Source: Candidatus Micrarchaeota archaeon
GTDB taxonomy: Archaea > Micrarchaeota > Micrarchaeia > Anstonellales > Bilamarchaeaceae
DNA length: 64,000 nucleotides
Reading direction: 5' to 3'
Assembly (NCBI GenBank): GCA_043812915.1
Contig: JBDRLQ010000007.1
Coordinates: 3,502 to 67,501 of the forward strand
Each line of letters starts with the position of its first letter. Within the stretch, counting starts at the first letter, position 1. The position numbers were made by a program, and so were the translations under genes. The notes under the pieces are model-generated. The model was not told the DNA's origin. It saw nothing but the letters and a program-made list of their open reading frames with translations, and did not search any database. This document shows, piece by piece, positions 2 to 7,720 of the stretch.

Positions 2-724
2 CTCGACTGCGATGCAGACTGCCCAAGTTCACATATTATAGCGGGTACGGAATTAAGAGGAAGGGAAGAGATCCGCTCTTTTCTTCCACAATTCATCGAA
101 GAGAAATGCATGCGCTGCGGAAAATGCGTCAATGTGTGTGAATTCAATGCCCTTTATCAGCTAAAAGACAAGGTACCCACGTTAGCCAGTTCCCTGTGCA
201 GCGGATGCGGTGCATGTATGATTGCATGTCCGTGCGGTGCCATTGAAGAATCGAGCAAGGTCATAGGGTGGACATACACGGCAGAGAAATATGGCGTGGA
301 ATTTTTTTCCGGTGAGCTGAAGCCTTCAGAGCCACTGAGCGAGAAGATTGTGGATGCCGTCAAGCAGAGGGGACTGGCAAGGAAGCATGAAATCGTGATT
401 GTGGATACCGCTGCTGGTGCACACTGTCAGGTGGTATGTGCCTTAGAAGACTGTGATAAGGCGGTAGCAGTTACAGAACCGACTTTCTTTGGAGAGCATG
501 ACCTAAAGGTTATCTCAGAGCTCCTGAAAAAGCTTGAAATACCGTATGAAACGGTTGTAAACAGAAGCACCATATCCGACAGGAAAATAGAATCGAGCCT
601 GCAGATTCCTTATGACAGGGCCATGGTTGAATGTTATGTCGAGGGCATTCCAATTGTTGAAAAATTCCCTGAGCACCAGATCTCAAAGAAGATATTCTCG
701 TTTGCGAAGAGGTTGATTGGATGA
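2..724 (+). CDS. MinD/ParA-superfamily P-loop ATPase with inserted double [4Fe-4S] ferredoxin domain (COG1149-like); 5' end outside window
   Basis: The frame is open from nt 2 (LDCDADCPSSHII...). Two full cluster motifs are present (CMRCGKCVNVC and CSGCGACMIACP), followed by a MinD-like C-terminal half (IVIVDTAAGAHC). The stop overlaps the next start (ATGA). Confidence 0.8.
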   Translation, partial: LDCDADCPSSHIIAGTELRGREEIRSFLPQFIEEKCMRCGKCVNVCEFNALYQLKDKVPTLASSLCSGCGACMIACPCGAIEESSKVIGWTYTAEKYGVEFFSGELKPSEPLSEKIVDAVKQRGLARKHEIVIVDTAAGAHCQVVCALEDCDKAVAVTEPTFFGEHDLKVISELLKKLEIPYETVVNRSTISDRKIESSLQIPYDRAMVECYVEGIPIVEKFPEHQISKKIFSFAKRLIG

Positions 725-1596
725 AAGTGGCAATCCTTAGCGGAAAGGGGGGTACTGGAAAATCCTCATTTACATCTTCATTGGCACTTAGCATGTCAAA
801 GAAAAAACTGGTTCTTGTTGATGCTGATGTGGACTGTCCGAATCAGCACATCATGTTTCCAGGAAAAACATTGCGCAGGGAACCGCTGCACGTATCAAAG
901 ACTGCTGTTTTTGATGAGACTAAACACAATGCCTCTTCTCGCTGTGCAGAAGTCTGTCGATTTGGTGCCATAAAGATAGTCGATGGTAAAGCGATTATAG
1001 ATAGGATAAAATGCGAAGGATGCGGTGCCTGCGTTCTTGCATGCCCTGAGGCCATAAAGCTTGTTCCGAAGTTAAGCGGAGAACTGATCGTAAGGGAAAC
1101 ACAGCAGTTTCCGCTTGTTTACGGAAAGCTGGAGCCTGGAGAGTCCGGAAGCGGCAGAGTGGTTTTTGAGGTAAAAAAAGCCGCTGATTCCATCGCAAAG
1201 GAGAAGGGTGCGGAATTGATTCTTGTGGACGCGCCTGCCGGCATCGGTTGTCCTGTGATAGCGGCTGTGATAGGTTGTGATTATGCAGTTGGGGTTGTTG
1301 AGCCCACTCCCGCCAGCATAGCGAACCTCGAAAGGGCTCTTGAGGTAGTCAGGCATTTTAGTATTCCGTTCTCGGTAGTGATAAATAAGGCGGGCATATC
1401 CGAAATATATGAGAAAAAAATCAAGGAATGCTACGGGGACAAAGTGATTGCACTGATACCTTATGACGAAGAGGTTCCCCGTCTGCTTGCCCAGGCAATC
1501 CCACCCATTCGCGGAAACGGAAAGGGAGCTGAGGGGTTCAAAAAAGCTGTTGAGGCCGTTGAAAAAGCTATGGAAACTTTTAGTCGAGCTGATTAG
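721..1596 (+). CDS. MinD/ParA-superfamily P-loop ATPase with ferredoxin insert (COG1149-like)
   Basis: Deviant Walker A ILSGKGGTGKSS. One complete motif CEGCGACVLACP plus a degenerate first motif (CAEVCRFGA). Later LVDAPAGIGCPV. Paralog of the upstream gene. Confidence 0.85.
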   Translation: MKVAILSGKGGTGKSSFTSSLALSMSKKKLVLVDADVDCPNQHIMFPGKTLRREPLHVSKTAVFDETKHNASSRCAEVCRFGAIKIVDGKAIIDRIKCEGCGACVLACPEAIKLVPKLSGELIVRETQQFPLVYGKLEPGESGSGRVVFEVKKAADSIAKEKGAELILVDAPAGIGCPVIAAVIGCDYAVGVVEPTPASIANLERALEVVRHFSIPFSVVINKAGISEIYEKKIKECYGDKVIALIPYDEEVPRLLAQAIPPIRGNGKGAEGFKKAVEAVEKAMETFSRAD

Positions 1597-1618: not shown

Positions 1619-1744
1619 TCAGCAGTTCTTGCACTCATGTATTCTGTGTTTGGTCCCATCAGGGTGTATGCATTCATCCCCAGAATGTTTGTGGCCCTTG
1701 CACTTTTTGCAATTGCAGTCTTTGCCTTTATGTTTGTGTAGCAT
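1619..1744 (-). CDS. 41-aa Cys/His/Lys-rich small protein (hypothetical; below ORF-track cutoff)
   Basis: Hand translation: MLHKHKGKDCNCKKCKGHKHSGDECIHPDGTKHRIHECKNC* (6 Cys, 7 His). The ATG lies about 26 nt downstream of the centre of a TTTATAAA box, so the transcript could be leaderless. Same strand as the radical SAM gene and 80 nt downstream of it. Confidence 0.45.
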   Translation of the reverse strand: MLHKHKGKDCNCKKCKGHKHSGDECIHPDGTKHRIHECKNC

Positions 1745-1766
1745 GAAGAACCAATGCATAAGGACT

Positions 1767-1774
1767 TTTATAAA
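1767..1774 (-). promoter_or_regulatory. TATA-box-like element TTTATAAA upstream of the small Cys/His ORF
   Basis: Perfect archaeal TATA-like octamer. The distance to ATG(1744) fits transcription starting at or near the start codon. Confidence 0.4.
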
Positions 1775-1824
1775 TCTATTATCAGTCTTGCATCCTTCAG
1801 AGGCAGAAATTTATTGGATAACTC

Positions 1825-2589
1825 TCAGAATTTTTCGCCAGGCCTTCTCGCGGCTGTTTCATGGATGTCCAGGGGCACTACCTGCGGTTTCCTTTTTTTG
1901 TAAACAGAGATGAATGGCAGCCCTTTGAACAAGTCCTCGATTTGGTCTATTTCATCTTCAGATAGGTGGGGGACTGGGGAATGGCGAAGAGGAGTGTCTA
2001 TCTGGACTTCGTCGGGCTTCAGTTCACGTGCAAGTTCTGCCATCTTTCCCGCGGTTTCCTGGTTATCTCTTATAAACATCATCTGCAAAGCAAACTTCCC
2101 CCCGAACTCTTTCCTGAAATCCCTCAATCCATCAAGAACAGTCTCGAAATCGATACCTTCGATTGGTTTGTTTATCTTCTGGAAAAGTCGCTCGTCAGGT
2201 GCATCTAACTTGGCTGAAACGATGTCTGCTCTGCTTAGCTCCCTCCTCACCTCTTTCAAGTGCAATAGGGAAGAATTTGTAAGAACGACGACCGGAAAGC
2301 CAAACGTCTGCGCGAATTCTATCATGTCACCGAGCTTTTGATTGAGGGTCGGTTCACCAGTGCCGGAGAAGGTTATCACTTCGCTAGTGCTTTTATCGAC
2401 CCTCTTAAGCTCTTTACATACCTGTGCATACTCCACGTATTCTTCTCTTTCCATTGTCTTGTTCTTTGTCTTCCCCAACTGGCAGTAAACGCAGTCAAAT
2501 GAACATATCTTCTTCATGCTGCATATGGGATCCACGCCCAGTGATTTGCCAAACCGCCATGATGGGACGGGTCCGTAGACTGTTTTCAT
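1825..2589 (-). CDS. radical SAM enzyme (specific function unassigned)
   Basis: N-terminal YGPVPSWRFGKSLGVDP followed by CSFDCVYCQ (Cx3Cx2C). About 254 aa, with no obvious SPASM/auxiliary cluster extension. Confidence 0.85.
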   Translation of the reverse strand: MKTVYGPVPSWRFGKSLGVDPICSMKKICSFDCVYCQLGKTKNKTMEREEYVEYAQVCKELKRVDKSTSEVITFSGTGEPTLNQKLGDMIEFAQTFGFPVVVLTNSSLLHLKEVRRELSRADIVSAKLDAPDERLFQKINKPIEGIDFETVLDGLRDFRKEFGGKFALQMMFIRDNQETAGKMAELARELKPDEVQIDTPLRHSPVPHLSEDEIDQIEDLFKGLPFISVYKKRKPQVVPLDIHETAARRPGEKF

Positions 2590-2895: not shown

Positions 2896-4386
2896 TTAAT
2901 CTCCCGGCATACTATCTATCTTGCCGAAATCCCCGTCAAAAAGGAAATCGAAGAAATCGTGCGCCAGCATGCCCACATAGCGCAGCGCGCCCGCATTCTG
3001 GTATTTCCTGTGCATGCTCTTTAGCTCAGGCGGGATGGCCGCCCTTTCCGCATAAACCGTTGCCGCCTCCTTCCTCATGACCGCGAACACCCTCCCATGC
3101 ATGGTCAGTATCCTGGCGCGTATCATGCCTATCAGCTCTTCCACGCCCGGCCTGCCCTGCCCAGGCGCCTCTATGACGGTCATTCCCATGCCGAGCGAGT
3201 CCGCCCCTATCACATAAAGCCCGCTTCTCCTCTCCAGCACGAATGGCAGCGTCTTGTGCTCGTCCGTCTCGAAATGCGTGTTTATGCCGTTCGCCCGGTT
3301 GAGCTCCGTCGCTAGCGCAAGATTGGTCTGGTTCACCCACAGATTGGGGTTGCCGATATGCTCCCGGTTTATCTCCTTGAGGAATTTTCTTAGCTTCGGT
3401 TCGCTCACCCGCATCTCCGCGTTCTTCGCGTACAGGCTCGCATTCCACATGGCTATGGAATCAAACCTCTGGGACAATAGAAGCGCCTCGTCAAGGGACA
3501 ATGCGCATGTTTCCACCGCGCTAAAGAGCCCGACTATAGGTATGGGCAGGTTGGGCGAGTTGAAGTTGACTGGATGGGCGATGCCTAGCGCAAGCTGGTC
3601 TTTCCCCTGCATCCTGAAGAGGATATCCAGCATATCGTACATGCCCATGCCCGAGAAGAAGGAAGCCATGCTATTCGGCACCCTCTTGTAAAGGATGTCT
3701 TCCCTCACCTCCAGCGCAGCTTCAATATTCGCCATCCACAGCAGGATGTGGGGCCCGTTCGGCTCCTTTAGCGGAGCGGTCAATTCCACTGACGGCACCG
3801 CCATCAGCCCGAGCAGGGCCGCGGACTTTGACATCAGGTTGAACATCTGTTTCTCGAAGGAGTTGTGTGTTGTGAGCGCGTAATAGTCGCTATGGTAGAA
3901 CAGGGCTTTCCTCAGGTTGTCTGTCAGGGATGACACGCCGTCGTCGTAGGGCACCAAGCCCTGCATTGCCTGCCTGCTCCCCATGGGCGGCGTAATTGCG
4001 CCGAAATGCGAGTGCGGCACGAAAAAGAAATGATCCGGCTTCTTGTGCATGGCCGCGCCCTTCGCCTGCCAGATCGCCTGTTCGACCTCGCCCCTGGATG
4101 CGTCCTTCTCCAATGTTATTGAGCGTATGAACTGCTCCCTCTTGAGTTCAAGCCCGTTCTGGTCTGGGTCGTAGAAATACAACGTCAGCTTTCCGTCATC
4201 GTGTCTTCTGGCGAGTATGCAGAAGTTCGAGCTTTTCCCGTCCAGCCCGCGGTTGAAAATCAGCTCTGCTCTGGGGTACAATGAGCGGAAGAATGCGCCG
4301 TTGATGTTTTTTCTATGTGCGAGGGGAAAGCCTGCACGCTCCATCCCGGAGACCAGCCTGTCCTCCACTTTTCCTCCTGCTCTCAT
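2896..4386 (-). CDS. hypothetical protein (~496 aa), no family recognised
   Basis: Long ORF. I chose ATG 4386 (MRAGGKVEDRL..., preceded by GGTGAAGAG) because the first 85 codons of the track ORF overlap the znuB-like gene. Confidence 0.6.
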   Translation of the reverse strand: MRAGGKVEDRLVSGMERAGFPLAHRKNINGAFFRSLYPRAELIFNRGLDGKSSNFCILARRHDDGKLTLYFYDPDQNGLELKREQFIRSITLEKDASRGEVEQAIWQAKGAAMHKKPDHFFFVPHSHFGAITPPMGSRQAMQGLVPYDDGVSSLTDNLRKALFYHSDYYALTTHNSFEKQMFNLMSKSAALLGLMAVPSVELTAPLKEPNGPHILLWMANIEAALEVREDILYKRVPNSMASFFSGMGMYDMLDILFRMQGKDQLALGIAHPVNFNSPNLPIPIVGLFSAVETCALSLDEALLLSQRFDSIAMWNASLYAKNAEMRVSEPKLRKFLKEINREHIGNPNLWVNQTNLALATELNRANGINTHFETDEHKTLPFVLERRSGLYVIGADSLGMGMTVIEAPGQGRPGVEELIGMIRARILTMHGRVFAVMRKEAATVYAERAAIPPELKSMHRKYQNAGALRYVGMLAHDFFDFLFDGDFGKIDSMPGD

Positions 4387-4591
4387 CTCTTCACCGTGTT
4401 TTATTATGGCTGATTGTATTTTTAATTGCCAAGGTCCGGGAAAACCCCGGCACAATGCGGAAGAGATACGCCATTGAGCATCAGGACGCAATGCGCAACG
4501 GGGATGCGGGTTCCATTTGCCCAATGTCCGTAGCGATTCTATCGTGAGCCGGACAATGGAGCGGCGTGGCGCCAGAGCGTCATAGGGCCTG

Positions 4592-5392
4592 CTAGCCGGC
4601 CATCTTTCTGAGCAGGTAACTGGTAAGGAAAGCGGCTGCAAGAAGGAGGATTATCGTTGCCCCGGACGGAAGGTCGAAAACATATGAGAGCCACAGCCCC
4701 CCCAAGGTCAGGATGGCGCAGGCAATCACTGAAAAGGCCATCATGCGCCCCAGGCTATTTGTGTGCTGTTTCGCTATGGCAGCTGGCAGCGTGAGCAGGG
4801 CTATTACCAGTATTATGCCAACCACCTTTATCATCACAACAACGCTGAGCGCGACCAGGCACAGCAGGAGGAGGTAAAGCCGCCTGGTCGGAACGCCCGA
4901 AACCTCCGCGAATTCCTCGTCGAAGGACAGCGCTTTCAGCTCCTTGTAAAGGAAAAACGTGAATATTATGATGACCAGGTCCAGAATGCCCATAACTGCA
5001 AGCTCAAGCACGGGCACTGTCAGGATGTTGCCGAACAGGTAGCTGAAAAGGTCCGGCGCGTAGCCCTCGCTAAGGTGTATGAAAAGTATCCCAAGGGCCA
5101 TTCCGACGGCCCAGAATATCCCTATGGAAGTGTCTTCGCTGATTTTGGTTTCCTTTGATACGATTCCCATGCCCAGTGCGGACAGGACGCTCCATGGAAC
5201 GGCGGTAAGAATCGGGTCGGCGTTTATCAGGTATCCAAGCCCGATGCCCCCGAAAGCGGTGTGGGCAATCCCGCCGCTTATCGCGACTATCCTCTTGACC
5301 ACAACGTAGGTGCCGACTATCCCGCAGGCTATGCTCACAAGGAAGGCCGCGGCAAACGCGTTTCTCATGAATTCATACTGCAGGATGTCCAT
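4592..5392 (-). CDS. znuB: metal ABC transporter permease (ABC-3 / ZnuB-MntB-TroC type)
   Basis: [34 protein letters not shown]..., multi-TM. ATG 5392 has GGAGG 10 nt upstream and sits 2 nt after the ATPase stop. Confidence 0.85.
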
Positions 5393-5393
5393 C

Positions 5394-6146
5394 TTAGTCA
5401 TGCCTCCCAAGGACCCTGTGCGGCATGCCGTGCGCAATCAGCTCAATCGGGCACTGGTAGGTTTTCTCGATGAACTTCACGCCTTCCTTTGTTTTGCCGT
5501 GGTAGTAGAGCTTTACGTTGAGGCAGGCGATTTTCTCTATGTAAAATGACGCGGCTGTTATGTCATGCGTGATAATCACAATCGCCATGTCCTGTTTCAG
5601 TTTGTTCAGCAGCTCATAGAAGTTTTTCTGGGCCTCGGGGTCGATGCTCGATAGCGGCTCGTCGAGGAGGAGCAGCTCCGGTTTTTTTACCAGCGCCCTT
5701 GCGACAAGGACCCTTTGCAGCTGCCCTCCGGAAAGCTGGCTTATCTGCCTGTTGGATTGCGGCAGCATGCCCACCTTGTCCAGCGCATCCATGGCATCTT
5801 CCCGGTCCTCTTTGGTAAACCAGCTTCCAAAGCCCCTTTTTCCAAGCCGTCCCATCAGCGTAACCTCAAGCACGGTTATCGGAAAGTCCCTGTTGAAAGT
5901 TGCGACCTGCGGGACATATCCGACTTTGTCCCTTGCCTCCTTGGGGGATTTTCCGAAAACCTTTACCACTCCTTTTGCGGGCTTGAGCAGGCCCAGTATT
6001 ATCCTGAACAGGGTTGTCTTTCCCCCTCCGTTGGGGCCTATGATGCCGACCAGGTCCCTTTTTTCTATCGACAGATTGATATCGTGAAGCGCGGGCTGCT
6101 CATCATAGGAAAAACAGACCCCGCTCATCTCTATGGCATCGGACAT
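5394..6146 (-). CDS. znuC: metal ABC transporter ATP-binding protein
   Basis: Walker [10 protein letters not shown], signature LSGGQLQR, Walker B LLLLDEP. Start [10 protein letters not shown] chosen downstream of the SBP gene stop. Confidence 0.9.
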
Positions 6147-6183
6147 GGAAATCAAACTCGGTTGGAATAAATAAAAAGGCAGC

Positions 6184-7104
6184 CTATTCCATGGAACTGG
6201 CAAAGGCGTTTGCAATCTGCTGCATGTTGCGCAGGTAATCCTTGTCAAGCGGGTCTATGAGGACAACGCTTCCTCCGATTTGTCCGGCAACCGTCCGCGC
6301 GCTATCAGCGCTGAACTGCGGCGATGCGAAAATGACCTTTATGCCGTGTTCATCCGCCTCGTCTATTATGCGCTGCAGGTTCTGCGCGGTAGGCTCCTTT
6401 CCAGCTTCTTCCATCGCGACCTGCTCCAGGCCGTATTCATGCGCGAAATATCCCCAAGCAGGGTGGAAGACTATGAATTCCCCGTCCGTCTTGTTTTCAA
6501 GCGTAGCCAGTATGGAGGAATCCAGTGCATCGAGCCTGGCCATGTAATAATCGGCGTTCGCCTTGTAGTAGGCAGCGTTTTCAGGGTCTTCCGCAACAAG
6601 GGCTTCATATATGTTCTGAACCATGACAATGGCGTTCTTCGGCGAGTTCCATATATGGGGATCAAGGCCGGTGTGGGCATGCTCCTGCTCTTCCGCCCCC
6701 TGCGCGTCGCCTTCATGCTCATCATGCCCGTTTTCCATCTCGATAAGGGTGATGCCTCTTGAACAATCGATGATTTTCATGGAGGGATTGACGCCCTCTA
6801 TATCCGCCATCCAGGCATTTTCAAATTCCACGCCGGAGCCGACCTTGAAATACAATCCGGCAGCAGCAACTTCCGTAAGCTGGGACGGGGTAGGCTCATA
6901 CGTGTGCGGGCTCGCCCCGGAAGGAATCATCACTATTACATCCACTTTCTCCCCGCCGACGTTTTCAACGAATTCCGCCTGCGGCATGATAGTTACCACC
7001 ACCTTCATCTTTTCCTGCTGCTCCGAAGGTTCTTCATGGCCCGTGCAGCCAGAGAGCATGGAGAGGAGCAGCATTACTGAAAGGAGAGCTATTTTTTCCA
7101 TCAT
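6184..7104 (-). CDS. znuA: metal ABC transporter substrate-binding lipoprotein (TroA/ZnuA-like) with His/Asp/Glu-rich loop
   Basis: Signal peptide plus lipobox LSMLSGC. Metal-ligand contexts SPHTYEP, DPHIW, FHPAWGYF. Acidic/His loop ENGHDEHEGDAQGAEEQEHAH, as seen in ZnuA-type proteins. Confidence 0.85.
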   Translation of the reverse strand: MMEKIALLSVMLLLSMLSGCTGHEEPSEQQEKMKVVVTIMPQAEFVENVGGEKVDVIVMIPSGASPHTYEPTPSQLTEVAAAGLYFKVGSGVEFENAWMADIEGVNPSMKIIDCSRGITLIEMENGHDEHEGDAQGAEEQEHAHTGLDPHIWNSPKNAIVMVQNIYEALVAEDPENAAYYKANADYYMARLDALDSSILATLENKTDGEFIVFHPAWGYFAHEYGLEQVAMEEAGKEPTAQNLQRIIDEADEHGIKVIFASPQFSADSARTVAGQIGGSVVLIDPLDKDYLRNMQQIANAFASSME

Positions 7105-7152: not shown

Positions 7153-7339
7153 CATAATTATTAACTATGGGGAAAGGCAGCGGGAAAATTAATAAGAAAA
7201 GCGCGTTCGCGGGAAATGAATCCCTTGCGATGGGCGCATTATTCGCGCTTGGGCTCTTTGCATGCCCCCGCCCAATGTGCTTAGGAACGGCCGCGGCGCT
7301 CCTGCTAAACGGGATGAGGCAGAAGGCGATGGTGATTTT

Positions 7340-7720
7340 ATGGAAATAATCTCAATCTCAATAGATAAGGGGACTTTGAATGACCTGAATAACACCCAGG
7401 AAAAGCTCGGATTCAAAAGCCGCTCGAAACTGCTAAGGGCTACAATAAGTTCGCTCCTGAACGAATATTCCGTTCTGGACGGGCTATCCGGCCACTGCGA
7501 CGTTGTTTTCACGGTAACCTTCGAGCAGCATAGTGGCGGGGGATTCGGCAGGATTATGAACGAATTCGAGGGGATAATACGGACCGAGATACACCAGCAC
7601 CATGCCAAGACGTGCCTGCGGGTGATTATAGTCTGCGGGGACGCCCGGAAGGTGAGGGATTTTTTCGTCGCACTGAAAAATGAGAAAGGGGCCAAATCGG
7701 TGGCCTACTCGGTTTTATGA
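7340..7720 (+). CDS. nikR: NikR-family (ribbon-helix-helix + ACT-like metal-sensing domain) transcriptional regulator
   Basis: N-terminal RHH MEIISISIDKGTLNDLNNTQEKLGFKSRSKLLRATI. C-terminal FEQH...IHQHHAKTCLRVIIVCGD resembles the NikR His/Cys metal site. SD GGTGAT before ATG 7340. Confidence 0.75.
   Translation: MEIISISIDKGTLNDLNNTQEKLGFKSRSKLLRATISSLLNEYSVLDGLSGHCDVVFTVTFEQHSGGGFGRIMNEFEGIIRTEIHQHHAKTCLRVIIVCGDARKVRDFFVALKNEKGAKSVAYSVL

Follow-up and report, generated by a model that had tools for sequence, protein, structure and literature searches.

A conserved His/Cys-rich microprotein gene linked to DUF134-headed ORP-type clusters in Micrarchaeota and a few other archaea

Does a 41-codon open reading frame (ORF) in a short AT-rich spacer represent a gene, and if so, what could its product do? 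The question is raised by a 64,000 nt stretch of Candidatus Micrarchaeota DNA (positions 3,502 to 67,501 of contig JBDRLQ010000007.1, assembly GCA_043812915.1), hereafter called the window. The ORF lies in a 228-nt gap (39% GC vs 53% window-wide) between two convergent genes, one encoding the second of a pair of MinD/ferredoxin ATPases (721-1596, plus strand) and the other a radical SAM (S-adenosylmethionine) protein (1825-2589, minus strand). An initial annotation made from the sequence alone had offered two roles for the product, either a small metal-binding peptide, possibly tied to Zn/Ni uptake genes nearby, or a precursor or substrate of the radical SAM enzyme. Here we argue that the small ORF is a conserved protein-coding gene. 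The explanation that we favour, to which we give a probability of about 60%, is that it encodes a metal-binding microprotein, one of a family of 36-50 amino acids that would act as an accessory of a DUF134-headed gene set of the ORP ('orange protein') type, in part of the Micrarchaeota and a small number of other archaeal anaerobes. The basis of this explanation is a reading frame conserved by selection, an invariant His/Cys pattern and constant linkage to DUF134 and ORP-type genes.

1619-1744, minus strand: small ORF, coding sequence of a 41-amino-acid His/Cys/Lys-rich microprotein (supported by sequence, homologues, alignments and dN/dS, the ratio of non-synonymous to synonymous change)

Conservation of the small ORF

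Read from 1744 to 1619, the small ORF runs from an ATG to the TGA stop codon at 1621-1619 and encodes MLHKHKGKDCNCKKCKGHKHSGDECIHPDGTKHRIHECKNC. Re-reading of the sequence reproduced exactly the frame described in the initial annotation, with 6 Cys, 7 His and 9 Lys among the 41 residues, and the antisense ORF claimed for the locus is also present (94 amino acids, 1629-1913, plus strand). The small ORF was left uncalled by gene finders in the source genome, and it is annotated in few public records only. An alternative in-frame ATG at 1759, which would lengthen the product to 46 amino acids, is not conserved, and all homologues start at a Met aligning with the codon at 1744; the homologue alignment favours 1744 over 1759 as the start codon.

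The search of the 40 nearest genomes gave noise only, and a single-sequence word-index search returned no homologue. The family was first revealed by a six-frame search covering 401 genomes of the class, which detected stop-free full-length homologues in genomes that belong to the same family but a different genus (G377, G183 and G390 with 73%, 63% and 56% identity, respectively). Profile search added G414, G412 and four database proteins of 37-41 amino acids, scans with degenerate patterns found further members on genome and metagenome contigs (L025-L031, L034-L037), and divergent members were located at the same genomic slot in G294 and G392. The homologues range from 36 to 50 amino acids and occupy 12 loci besides that of the window, which belong to Micrarchaeota genomes and to a small number of further archaeal metagenome-assembled genomes (MAGs). 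Most of the loci are labelled Candidatus Micrarchaeota (DPANN), whereas three contigs carry the labels Thermoplasmatota, Methanobacteriota or Thaumarchaeota. When a profile was run against 1.84 billion representative proteins, three relatives, all tiny, were the sole matches, and the module was not found fused to any larger protein, for instance as a tail of DUF134. Neither the window peptide nor any of the 13 aligned members matched a Pfam or NCBIfam family.

Codon alignment of the window gene with its L025 homologue revealed changes at 13 of 19.2 synonymous and at 12 of 103.8 non-synonymous sites (omega 0.07). For all pairs for which it could be computed, dN/dS was between 0.04 and 0.28, with synonymous sites saturated. 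Because the frame is conserved at full length and free of stops in other genomes, and is under strong purifying selection, we regard the small ORF as a genuine gene. Both the reading frame and the Cys/His pattern are kept at the homologous loci.

These data also bear on the suspicion that the frame arose by chance or belongs to a non-coding element of the AT-rich convergent spacer. Such an origin would agree with its shortness, with its having been missed by gene finders, with the base composition of the spacer and with the blank results obtained in the first 40 relatives and in the word-index search. It is irreconcilable with the occurrence of the frame, without stops, at 12 or more other loci that represent four gene orders, with synonymous sites being saturated at such low dN/dS values and with the Shine-Dalgarno sites on the operonic copies. 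The comparative data already refute a chance origin, and its remaining probability is negligible.

Two candidate matches were rejected: one between the small protein and Tcp10_C, which was below the cut-off and spurious, and one to a bacterial HipA-like kinase (L033, ...HPDGTVHRIH...), which was judged to be due to chance. A separate sequence in a Thaumarchaeota-labelled MAG (L032, 4953-5069, plus strand), MSKCEYDPKHCKGNNKKNHKHENDQCVHPDGTKHKIHKR, has the same His/Cys core and lies beside genes for P-II and universal stress proteins instead of ORP genes. Its membership in the family is uncertain; possibly it is remotely related and placed in a different context.

Conserved residues and predicted metal ligands

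In the alignment of 13 sequences, 15 of the 41 positions are invariant (M1, C10, C15, H18, H20, C25, H27, D29, G30, H33, I35, H36, C38, K39 and C41). A larger alignment of 19 sequences was obtained by including divergent members, among them those of G294 and G392 and two short family representatives from the profile search (P0005 and P0006). Invariant in all 19 are H18, H20, C25, H27, G30 and H33, which define the universal core H18-x-H20-x4-C25-x-H27-x2-G30-x2-H33, with H36 usually present in addition. Conservation peaks in the middle of the sequence and at the C-terminus, and is lowest over the first eight residues.

An outer Cys set (C10/C15/C38/C41) is found in most members, which we call the long form, and short members of the family lack the terminal Cys pairs altogether. 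C12 is confined to the clade of the window protein, where the pairs are C12xxC15 and C38xxC41; in the relatives the N-terminal pair is mostly C10-x4-C15. The G392 member is a 50-amino-acid form. In the G294 member, MEKKTEKKHVHPGHEGHTHTKDSCIHENGKAHKRKVKRR, both C10 and C15 are replaced by His, and elsewhere His or Asp takes the place of C12. Since Cys-to-His exchanges at ligand positions are typical of metal sites, these ligand-for-ligand replacements point to a predicted metal site.

The AlphaFold2 model built from the 13-row alignment has three short strands (residues 19-21, 24-26 and 32-34) and a pLDDT (predicted local distance difference test) score of 66. As we read this model, the HxH and CxH motifs would be placed on adjacent strands. 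Foldseek comparison of the model with the PDB produced no match at E below 4, and a PDB profile search with the small protein no match at E up to 10.

From the conservation pattern we conclude that the small protein probably binds metal. The metal-binding role proposed in the initial annotation is supported in its general form, on account of the five invariant His/Cys residues in 19 sequences, the four further Cys of the long form and the ligand swaps; the tie to the NikR and Znu genes that went with it is not supported (see below).

Linkage to DUF134 and ORP-type genes

When reference proteins were mapped onto the loci, a gene for a DUF134 protein (PF02001, with a sigma-70 region-4-type helix-turn-helix, HTH) was found in the same cluster at 13 of 13 distinct small-ORF loci, frequently accompanied by further ORP genes. 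In seven loci about 18-55 nt separate the DUF134 gene from the small gene, which comes directly after it. A 130-amino-acid AdoMet_dc-like gene stands between the two in four others (G183, G412, G294 and G392), in G183 and G412 together with a DUF5320 gene. The remaining loci are those of the window and G377, where the opposite strand carries the small gene, distally in the cluster. The 130-amino-acid AdoMet_dc-like protein (PF02675) is conserved; its genes were recorded at L012 1624-2019 (minus strand), L023 291-683 (plus), L043 1263-1652 (minus) and L024 1616-2008 (minus).

The gene order on the contig of the window is DUF134, DUF5320, two Nitro_FeMo-Co genes and two MinD/ferredoxin genes, followed by the convergent small ORF and radical SAM gene. 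The DUF134 gene (C7:1974-2279) lies upstream of the window on the contig, and the Nitro_FeMo-Co genes (NifX-like, PF02579, single-domain; C7:2584-3006 and C7:3003-3350) just upstream of it. The ATPase genes extend into the window:

2-724, plus strand: MinD/ferredoxin ATPase gene 1, cut by the window start (full gene C7:3401-4225)
721-1596, plus strand: second gene of the pair, encoding a MinD/ParA-type ATPase with an inserted ferredoxin domain (Orp3/Orp4-like); last gene of the DUF134-headed cluster

The two MinD/ferredoxin proteins match CbiA/ParA and Fer4 and are 32% identical to each other. By its composition, with both the ATPase pair and Nitro_FeMo-Co proteins present, the cluster is of the ORP type. 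ORP clusters of anaerobes encode metal-binding proteins that form complexes, one of them a small [2Fe-2S] protein with a relationship to Orp5 (PMC6345978, citing Maiti 2016).

The linkage was also assessed with a 48-nt degenerate DNA motif representing the His/Cys core, which was scanned over 99 genomes of the family. The motif occurred in eight of them, with one match each and always at the same slot, whereas the reversed control motif occurred in 1 of 99. All eight positive genomes are among the 37 that carry DUF134 (Fisher p = 2e-4, a value to be read with the reservation that related genomes are not independent). Outside the family the core motif was found in 3 of about 320 genomes of the class. 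Two of these three matches contained in-frame stops and were discarded as chance matches.

A perfect 20-bp palindrome, TTATGAATATATATTCATAA, identical in three genomes of two genera, precedes DUF134 genes. It is located at C7:1951-1970, about 1.5 kb upstream of the window, and at C16:41036-41055 in the source genome (G000), at about 4063-4082 in L026 and at about 1641-1660 in L030, and ends 1-2 nt before the DUF134 ATG, just after a TATA-like box. In the source genome it occurs at the two DUF134 genes only and is absent before the small ORF and the radical SAM gene. The palindrome is likely a DUF134 auto-operator, putatively on leaderless mRNAs.

Other gene sets related to the cluster were also seen. 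The second DUF134 gene of the source genome, with the same palindrome, is followed by a gene for a 374-amino-acid thioredoxin-fold/DsbD-like membrane protein (C16:41059-42751, equal to L042 1059-2751), and a related gene follows the ORP cluster in G001, which is of the same genus. In a Methanobacteriota-labelled MAG (L031, 4037-10096), an ORP-type cluster with an MrpORP-like gene begins with rubrerythrin-like, DUF134 (with a long Gly/Lys tail), small His/Cys protein and DUF5320 genes and continues with an Mrp/NBP35 ATPase, two NifX-like proteins, a pyridine nucleotide-disulfide oxidoreductase and a radical SAM protein.

Predicted promoter and termination signals

1766-1780, minus strand: promoter island AATAGATTTATAAAA, a 15-nt identity with L025 (G377)
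1597-1616, either strand: T-rich spacer of 20 nt, CCTTTTAATCCAAGAAGAAA as read on the minus strand, shared without change by the window and L025

The initial annotation had described a perfect box centred about 26 nt upstream of the ATG. The box is the TATA box TTTATAAA at 1774-1767, for which we measured a distance of 26.5 nt between its centre and the A of the ATG at 1744. It ends 22 nt before the ATG and is preceded by a purine stretch resembling a transcription factor B recognition element; in the whole 64-kb window the octamer occurs twice. The island that includes the box is identical in the window and in L025, lying 21-22 nt before the ATG in both, and the surrounding spacer has diverged. 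Between the TATA box and the ATG there is no Shine-Dalgarno sequence, no GGTGA, in the window or in G377, whereas this motif stands 5-10 nt upstream of the start codon in nine homologues that are part of operons. Because the two species share a 15-nt island at a fixed distance from the ATG and lack GGTGA, comparison of the sequences supports a predicted stand-alone promoter giving a leaderless mRNA in both. The leaderless-promoter geometry proposed for the window is therefore conserved, in box and spacing, in one other species, and it is seen likewise at the DUF134 genes of these genomes.

The small ORF and MinD/ferredoxin gene 2 converge, and the 20-nt spacer separates their stop codons. Because this spacer is T-rich on both strands, it is likely to be a two-way archaeal termination region.

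Proposed role of the small protein

In the explanation that we favour, H18, H20, C25, H27 and H33, usually with H36, would sit on a small sheet of three strands and together make up a His-rich metal site. C10/C15 and C38/C41 would join the two ends of the protein around a second, zinc-ribbon-like Cys4 site, and the protein would accordingly carry one or two ions, in the His-rich site and in the Cys4 clamp. Alternatively, all ligands together might hold a small Fe-S cluster. The loaded protein would work with the products of the cluster, and our first choice is a metal- or redox-sensing partner of the DNA-binding DUF134 protein. We prefer this role because the small gene is usually co-transcribed with, and translated right after, DUF134. 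The second choice is a metal donor or carrier for the NifX-like and MinD/ferredoxin machinery. In the window species and one other, the small gene has been relocated to the distal end of the cluster, where a conserved TATA box of its own precedes it at leaderless distance.

The first choice can be sharpened into a tentative scheme, which we consider doubtful in its full form. The microprotein would be the detachable sensor half of a split metalloregulator, carrying a metal or a small Fe-S cluster in its invariant His4Cys core, and by docking on the sensor-less HTH protein DUF134 it would switch the binding of the latter to the palindrome in front of the ORP-type operon.

Several observations weigh against a metal-binding accessory function in the cluster. 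The AlphaFold2 model is only moderately confident and has no match to solved folds, and the strongly basic composition (ten Lys/Arg vs five Asp/Glu in the window protein) would equally suit nucleic-acid binding. The small ORF was found in 8 of the 37 DUF134-bearing genomes of the family only, and in G001, the only genome of the same genus, the cluster is present without it (G001 also lacks the radical SAM gene). The stand-alone promoter of the small ORF lacks the DUF134 palindrome, so co-regulation is not evident here. Finally, wherever both the small ORF and the radical SAM gene are present, they are near each other (≤0.7 kb apart in five loci, about 4 kb in L031), and this proximity leaves some room for a functional tie between the two. 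On account of its patchy presence, we consider the small protein a dispensable accessory of the ORP system, not a core component.

The charge of the protein leads to another possibility, a small basic zinc-ribbon that binds DNA or RNA, for example as an architectural or co-repressor subunit at the operator together with DUF134, and in which the metal is purely structural. Besides the excess of Lys/Arg, the invariant K39, the CxxC or Cx4C pair at each end, the position of the gene right after that of a sigma-70 region-4-type HTH protein and the conserved 20-bp palindrome before DUF134 genes are all compatible with such a function. However, conservation is highest in the His-rich core and not in the Cys4 clamp, and the terminal pairs are dispensed with by the short members. 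Five or six invariant His/Cys within 20 residues exceed what a structural zinc site needs, and similarity to known zinc-ribbon nucleic-acid binders was not found. These features make a purely nucleic-acid-binding role unlikely, about as doubtful as the split regulator.

Relationship to the radical SAM gene

1825-2589, minus strand: radical SAM gene, 254 amino acids, CSFDCVYC motif, core domain only (PF04055; orthologue operons)

The second role suggested in the initial annotation was that of a ribosomally synthesized and post-translationally modified peptide (RiPP): the small ORF would encode a precursor or substrate modified by the neighbouring enzyme, e.g. with thioether or other cross-links at Cys/His. 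In the window the radical SAM gene precedes the small ORF, with 80 nt from its stop to the start of the latter. The general proximity of the two genes and a Cys-rich product of precursor size agree with such a relationship.

The enzyme itself does not resemble a peptide-modifying one. It has five Cys in total and matches PF04055 alone (residues 28-186), which bears out the statement in the initial annotation that an obvious SPASM domain is lacking. Every NCBIfam match was far below the cut-off, with the SPASM-family models scoring 20-29 bits vs 250-650; there was no SPASM or twitch match. The closest relative in the PDB was TYW1 only, a distant one (E = 6e-4). No Pfam or NCBIfam match to an RRE/PqqD-like peptide-recognition element was obtained in the radical SAM protein or its neighbours.

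Neither do the two genes occur together consistently. Four orthologues of the enzyme (51-62% identity) are in operons with MinD/ferredoxin genes and none of them is adjoined by the small ORF. Conversely, the enzyme was not found in the small-ORF genomes G183 and G390 (each about 90% complete) and G412 (56% complete). Where both genes exist, their arrangement varies. The small ORF comes first in G414 and G392 (27-33 nt), L034 (about 600 nt) and L031 (about 4 kb), and in G377 an opposite-strand zinc-ribbon-like gene separates the two. Conservation extends along the entire peptide, as in a folded protein, with invariant ligand-like spacing and not with a conserved leader followed by a variable core. 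A RiPP precursor is improbable on these grounds; it looks as though one ORP-type cluster has the two genes as accessories that are independent of each other.

The gene inserted in G377 (L011 1780-2067, plus strand; L025 4560-4844, minus strand) encodes a 95-amino-acid Cys-rich protein, MDLFCTNCGKKFEG...CPQCKDLY, without a Pfam match. The family of 254-amino-acid radical SAM proteins was repeatedly seen in operon with two MinD/ferredoxin ATPases, frequently with start/stop overlap and sometimes with a gene of the metallo-β-lactamase fold; such radical SAM genes are also at L009 1501-2262 and L010 1501-2265. A speculative reading is that the radical SAM protein, the nearby NifX-like proteins and the ATPases resemble a NifB divided into its radical SAM part and its NifX domain and accompanied by a NifH-like ATPase.

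Nickel and zinc uptake genes

A Znu/Tro-type ABC (ATP-binding cassette) metal importer (4592-7104, minus strand) and a NikR-like gene (7262-7720, plus strand) are located 3-6 kb from the small ORF, and the initial annotation had connected its metal-binding role with these uptake genes 3 kb away. A His-rich nickel/zinc chaperone or storage peptide serving the importer and the NikR-like regulator would fit this neighbourhood. Comparison of the other small-ORF loci over 2-10 kb, however, showed no NikR-, ZnuA-, ZnuB- or ZnuC-like gene near any of them. In the window, too, the small ORF has its own predicted promoter, and the radical SAM gene and an orphan ORF of 581 codons intervene. We consider a chaperone or storage function for these uptake genes highly improbable, even more so than the RiPP role. 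Because the proximity to the NikR and Znu genes has no counterpart near any other family member, it is incidental. The long ORF between the radical SAM and Znu-type genes (2896-4641, minus strand; up to 581 codons) had no Pfam or NCBIfam match.

Significance and comparison with known systems

Small proteins are systematically missed in genome annotation, and the small ORF is an example. The sharply conserved ligand pattern inside an ORP-type cluster defines a previously unnamed His/Cys family, which is new as a sequence family; its kind, small Cys/His metal-binding accessories of metal-cluster systems, is known. With 41 residues the protein can be synthesized, and with the likely operator palindrome known, its metal preference and its effect on DUF134 are directly accessible. 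The locus also documents leaderless and Shine-Dalgarno-led versions of one gene in related DPANN archaea. To our knowledge, the function of the ORP system, widespread in anaerobes, has been unsolved since 2011; the split regulator, if true, would be the first functional handle on DUF134 and on the ORP system in archaea.

With the radical SAM/SPASM RiPP systems the locus shares a Cys-rich peptide gene of about 40 amino acids beside a radical SAM gene. It differs from them in lacking SPASM and RRE domains, in the inconsistent co-occurrence of the two genes and in a conservation pattern that resembles that of a folded domain.

The high-affinity nickel site of NikR is a His3Cys set, with His-x-His and a Cys on neighbouring strands, and Hpn is a His-rich nickel protein. 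An HxH motif followed by Cys/His on adjacent strands, as predicted for the small protein, would resemble the NikR set. The small protein shows no homology to NikR or Hpn, no ACT-like fold and no poly-His runs, and its linkage to nickel genes is not conserved.

Haloferax volcanii HVO_2753 and HVO_0758 are zinc-finger micro-proteins with two C(P)XCG motifs, which depend on Cys pairs for folding (PMC11241148, PMC10716476). The small protein has in common with such haloarchaeal micro-proteins that it is free-standing, shorter than 70 amino acids, equipped with Cys pairs and missed in annotation, and that such genes are often leaderless. It lacks C(P)XCG motifs, having CNCKKCKG and a terminal CKNC instead, and its core is a five- to six-residue His/Cys set as opposed to two Cys knuckles; neither in sequence nor in fold did it match them.

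A close parallel is the bacterial ORP system, with which the archaeal cluster shares two paralogous MinD/ferredoxin ATPases and Nitro_FeMo-Co proteins of the NifX/orange-protein type. Unlike the known ORP clusters, the archaeal (DPANN) one is headed by DUF134 and DUF5320 and is without sigma-54/OrpR control. Like Orp5/Dde_3197, the small protein is a small Cys-containing accessory encoded inside an ORP cluster. It differs from Orp5/Dde_3197, as far as these can be compared by description, in being His-rich with an HxH...CxH...H core, and the lack of larger or bacterial relatives in the profile search argues against close homology between the two.

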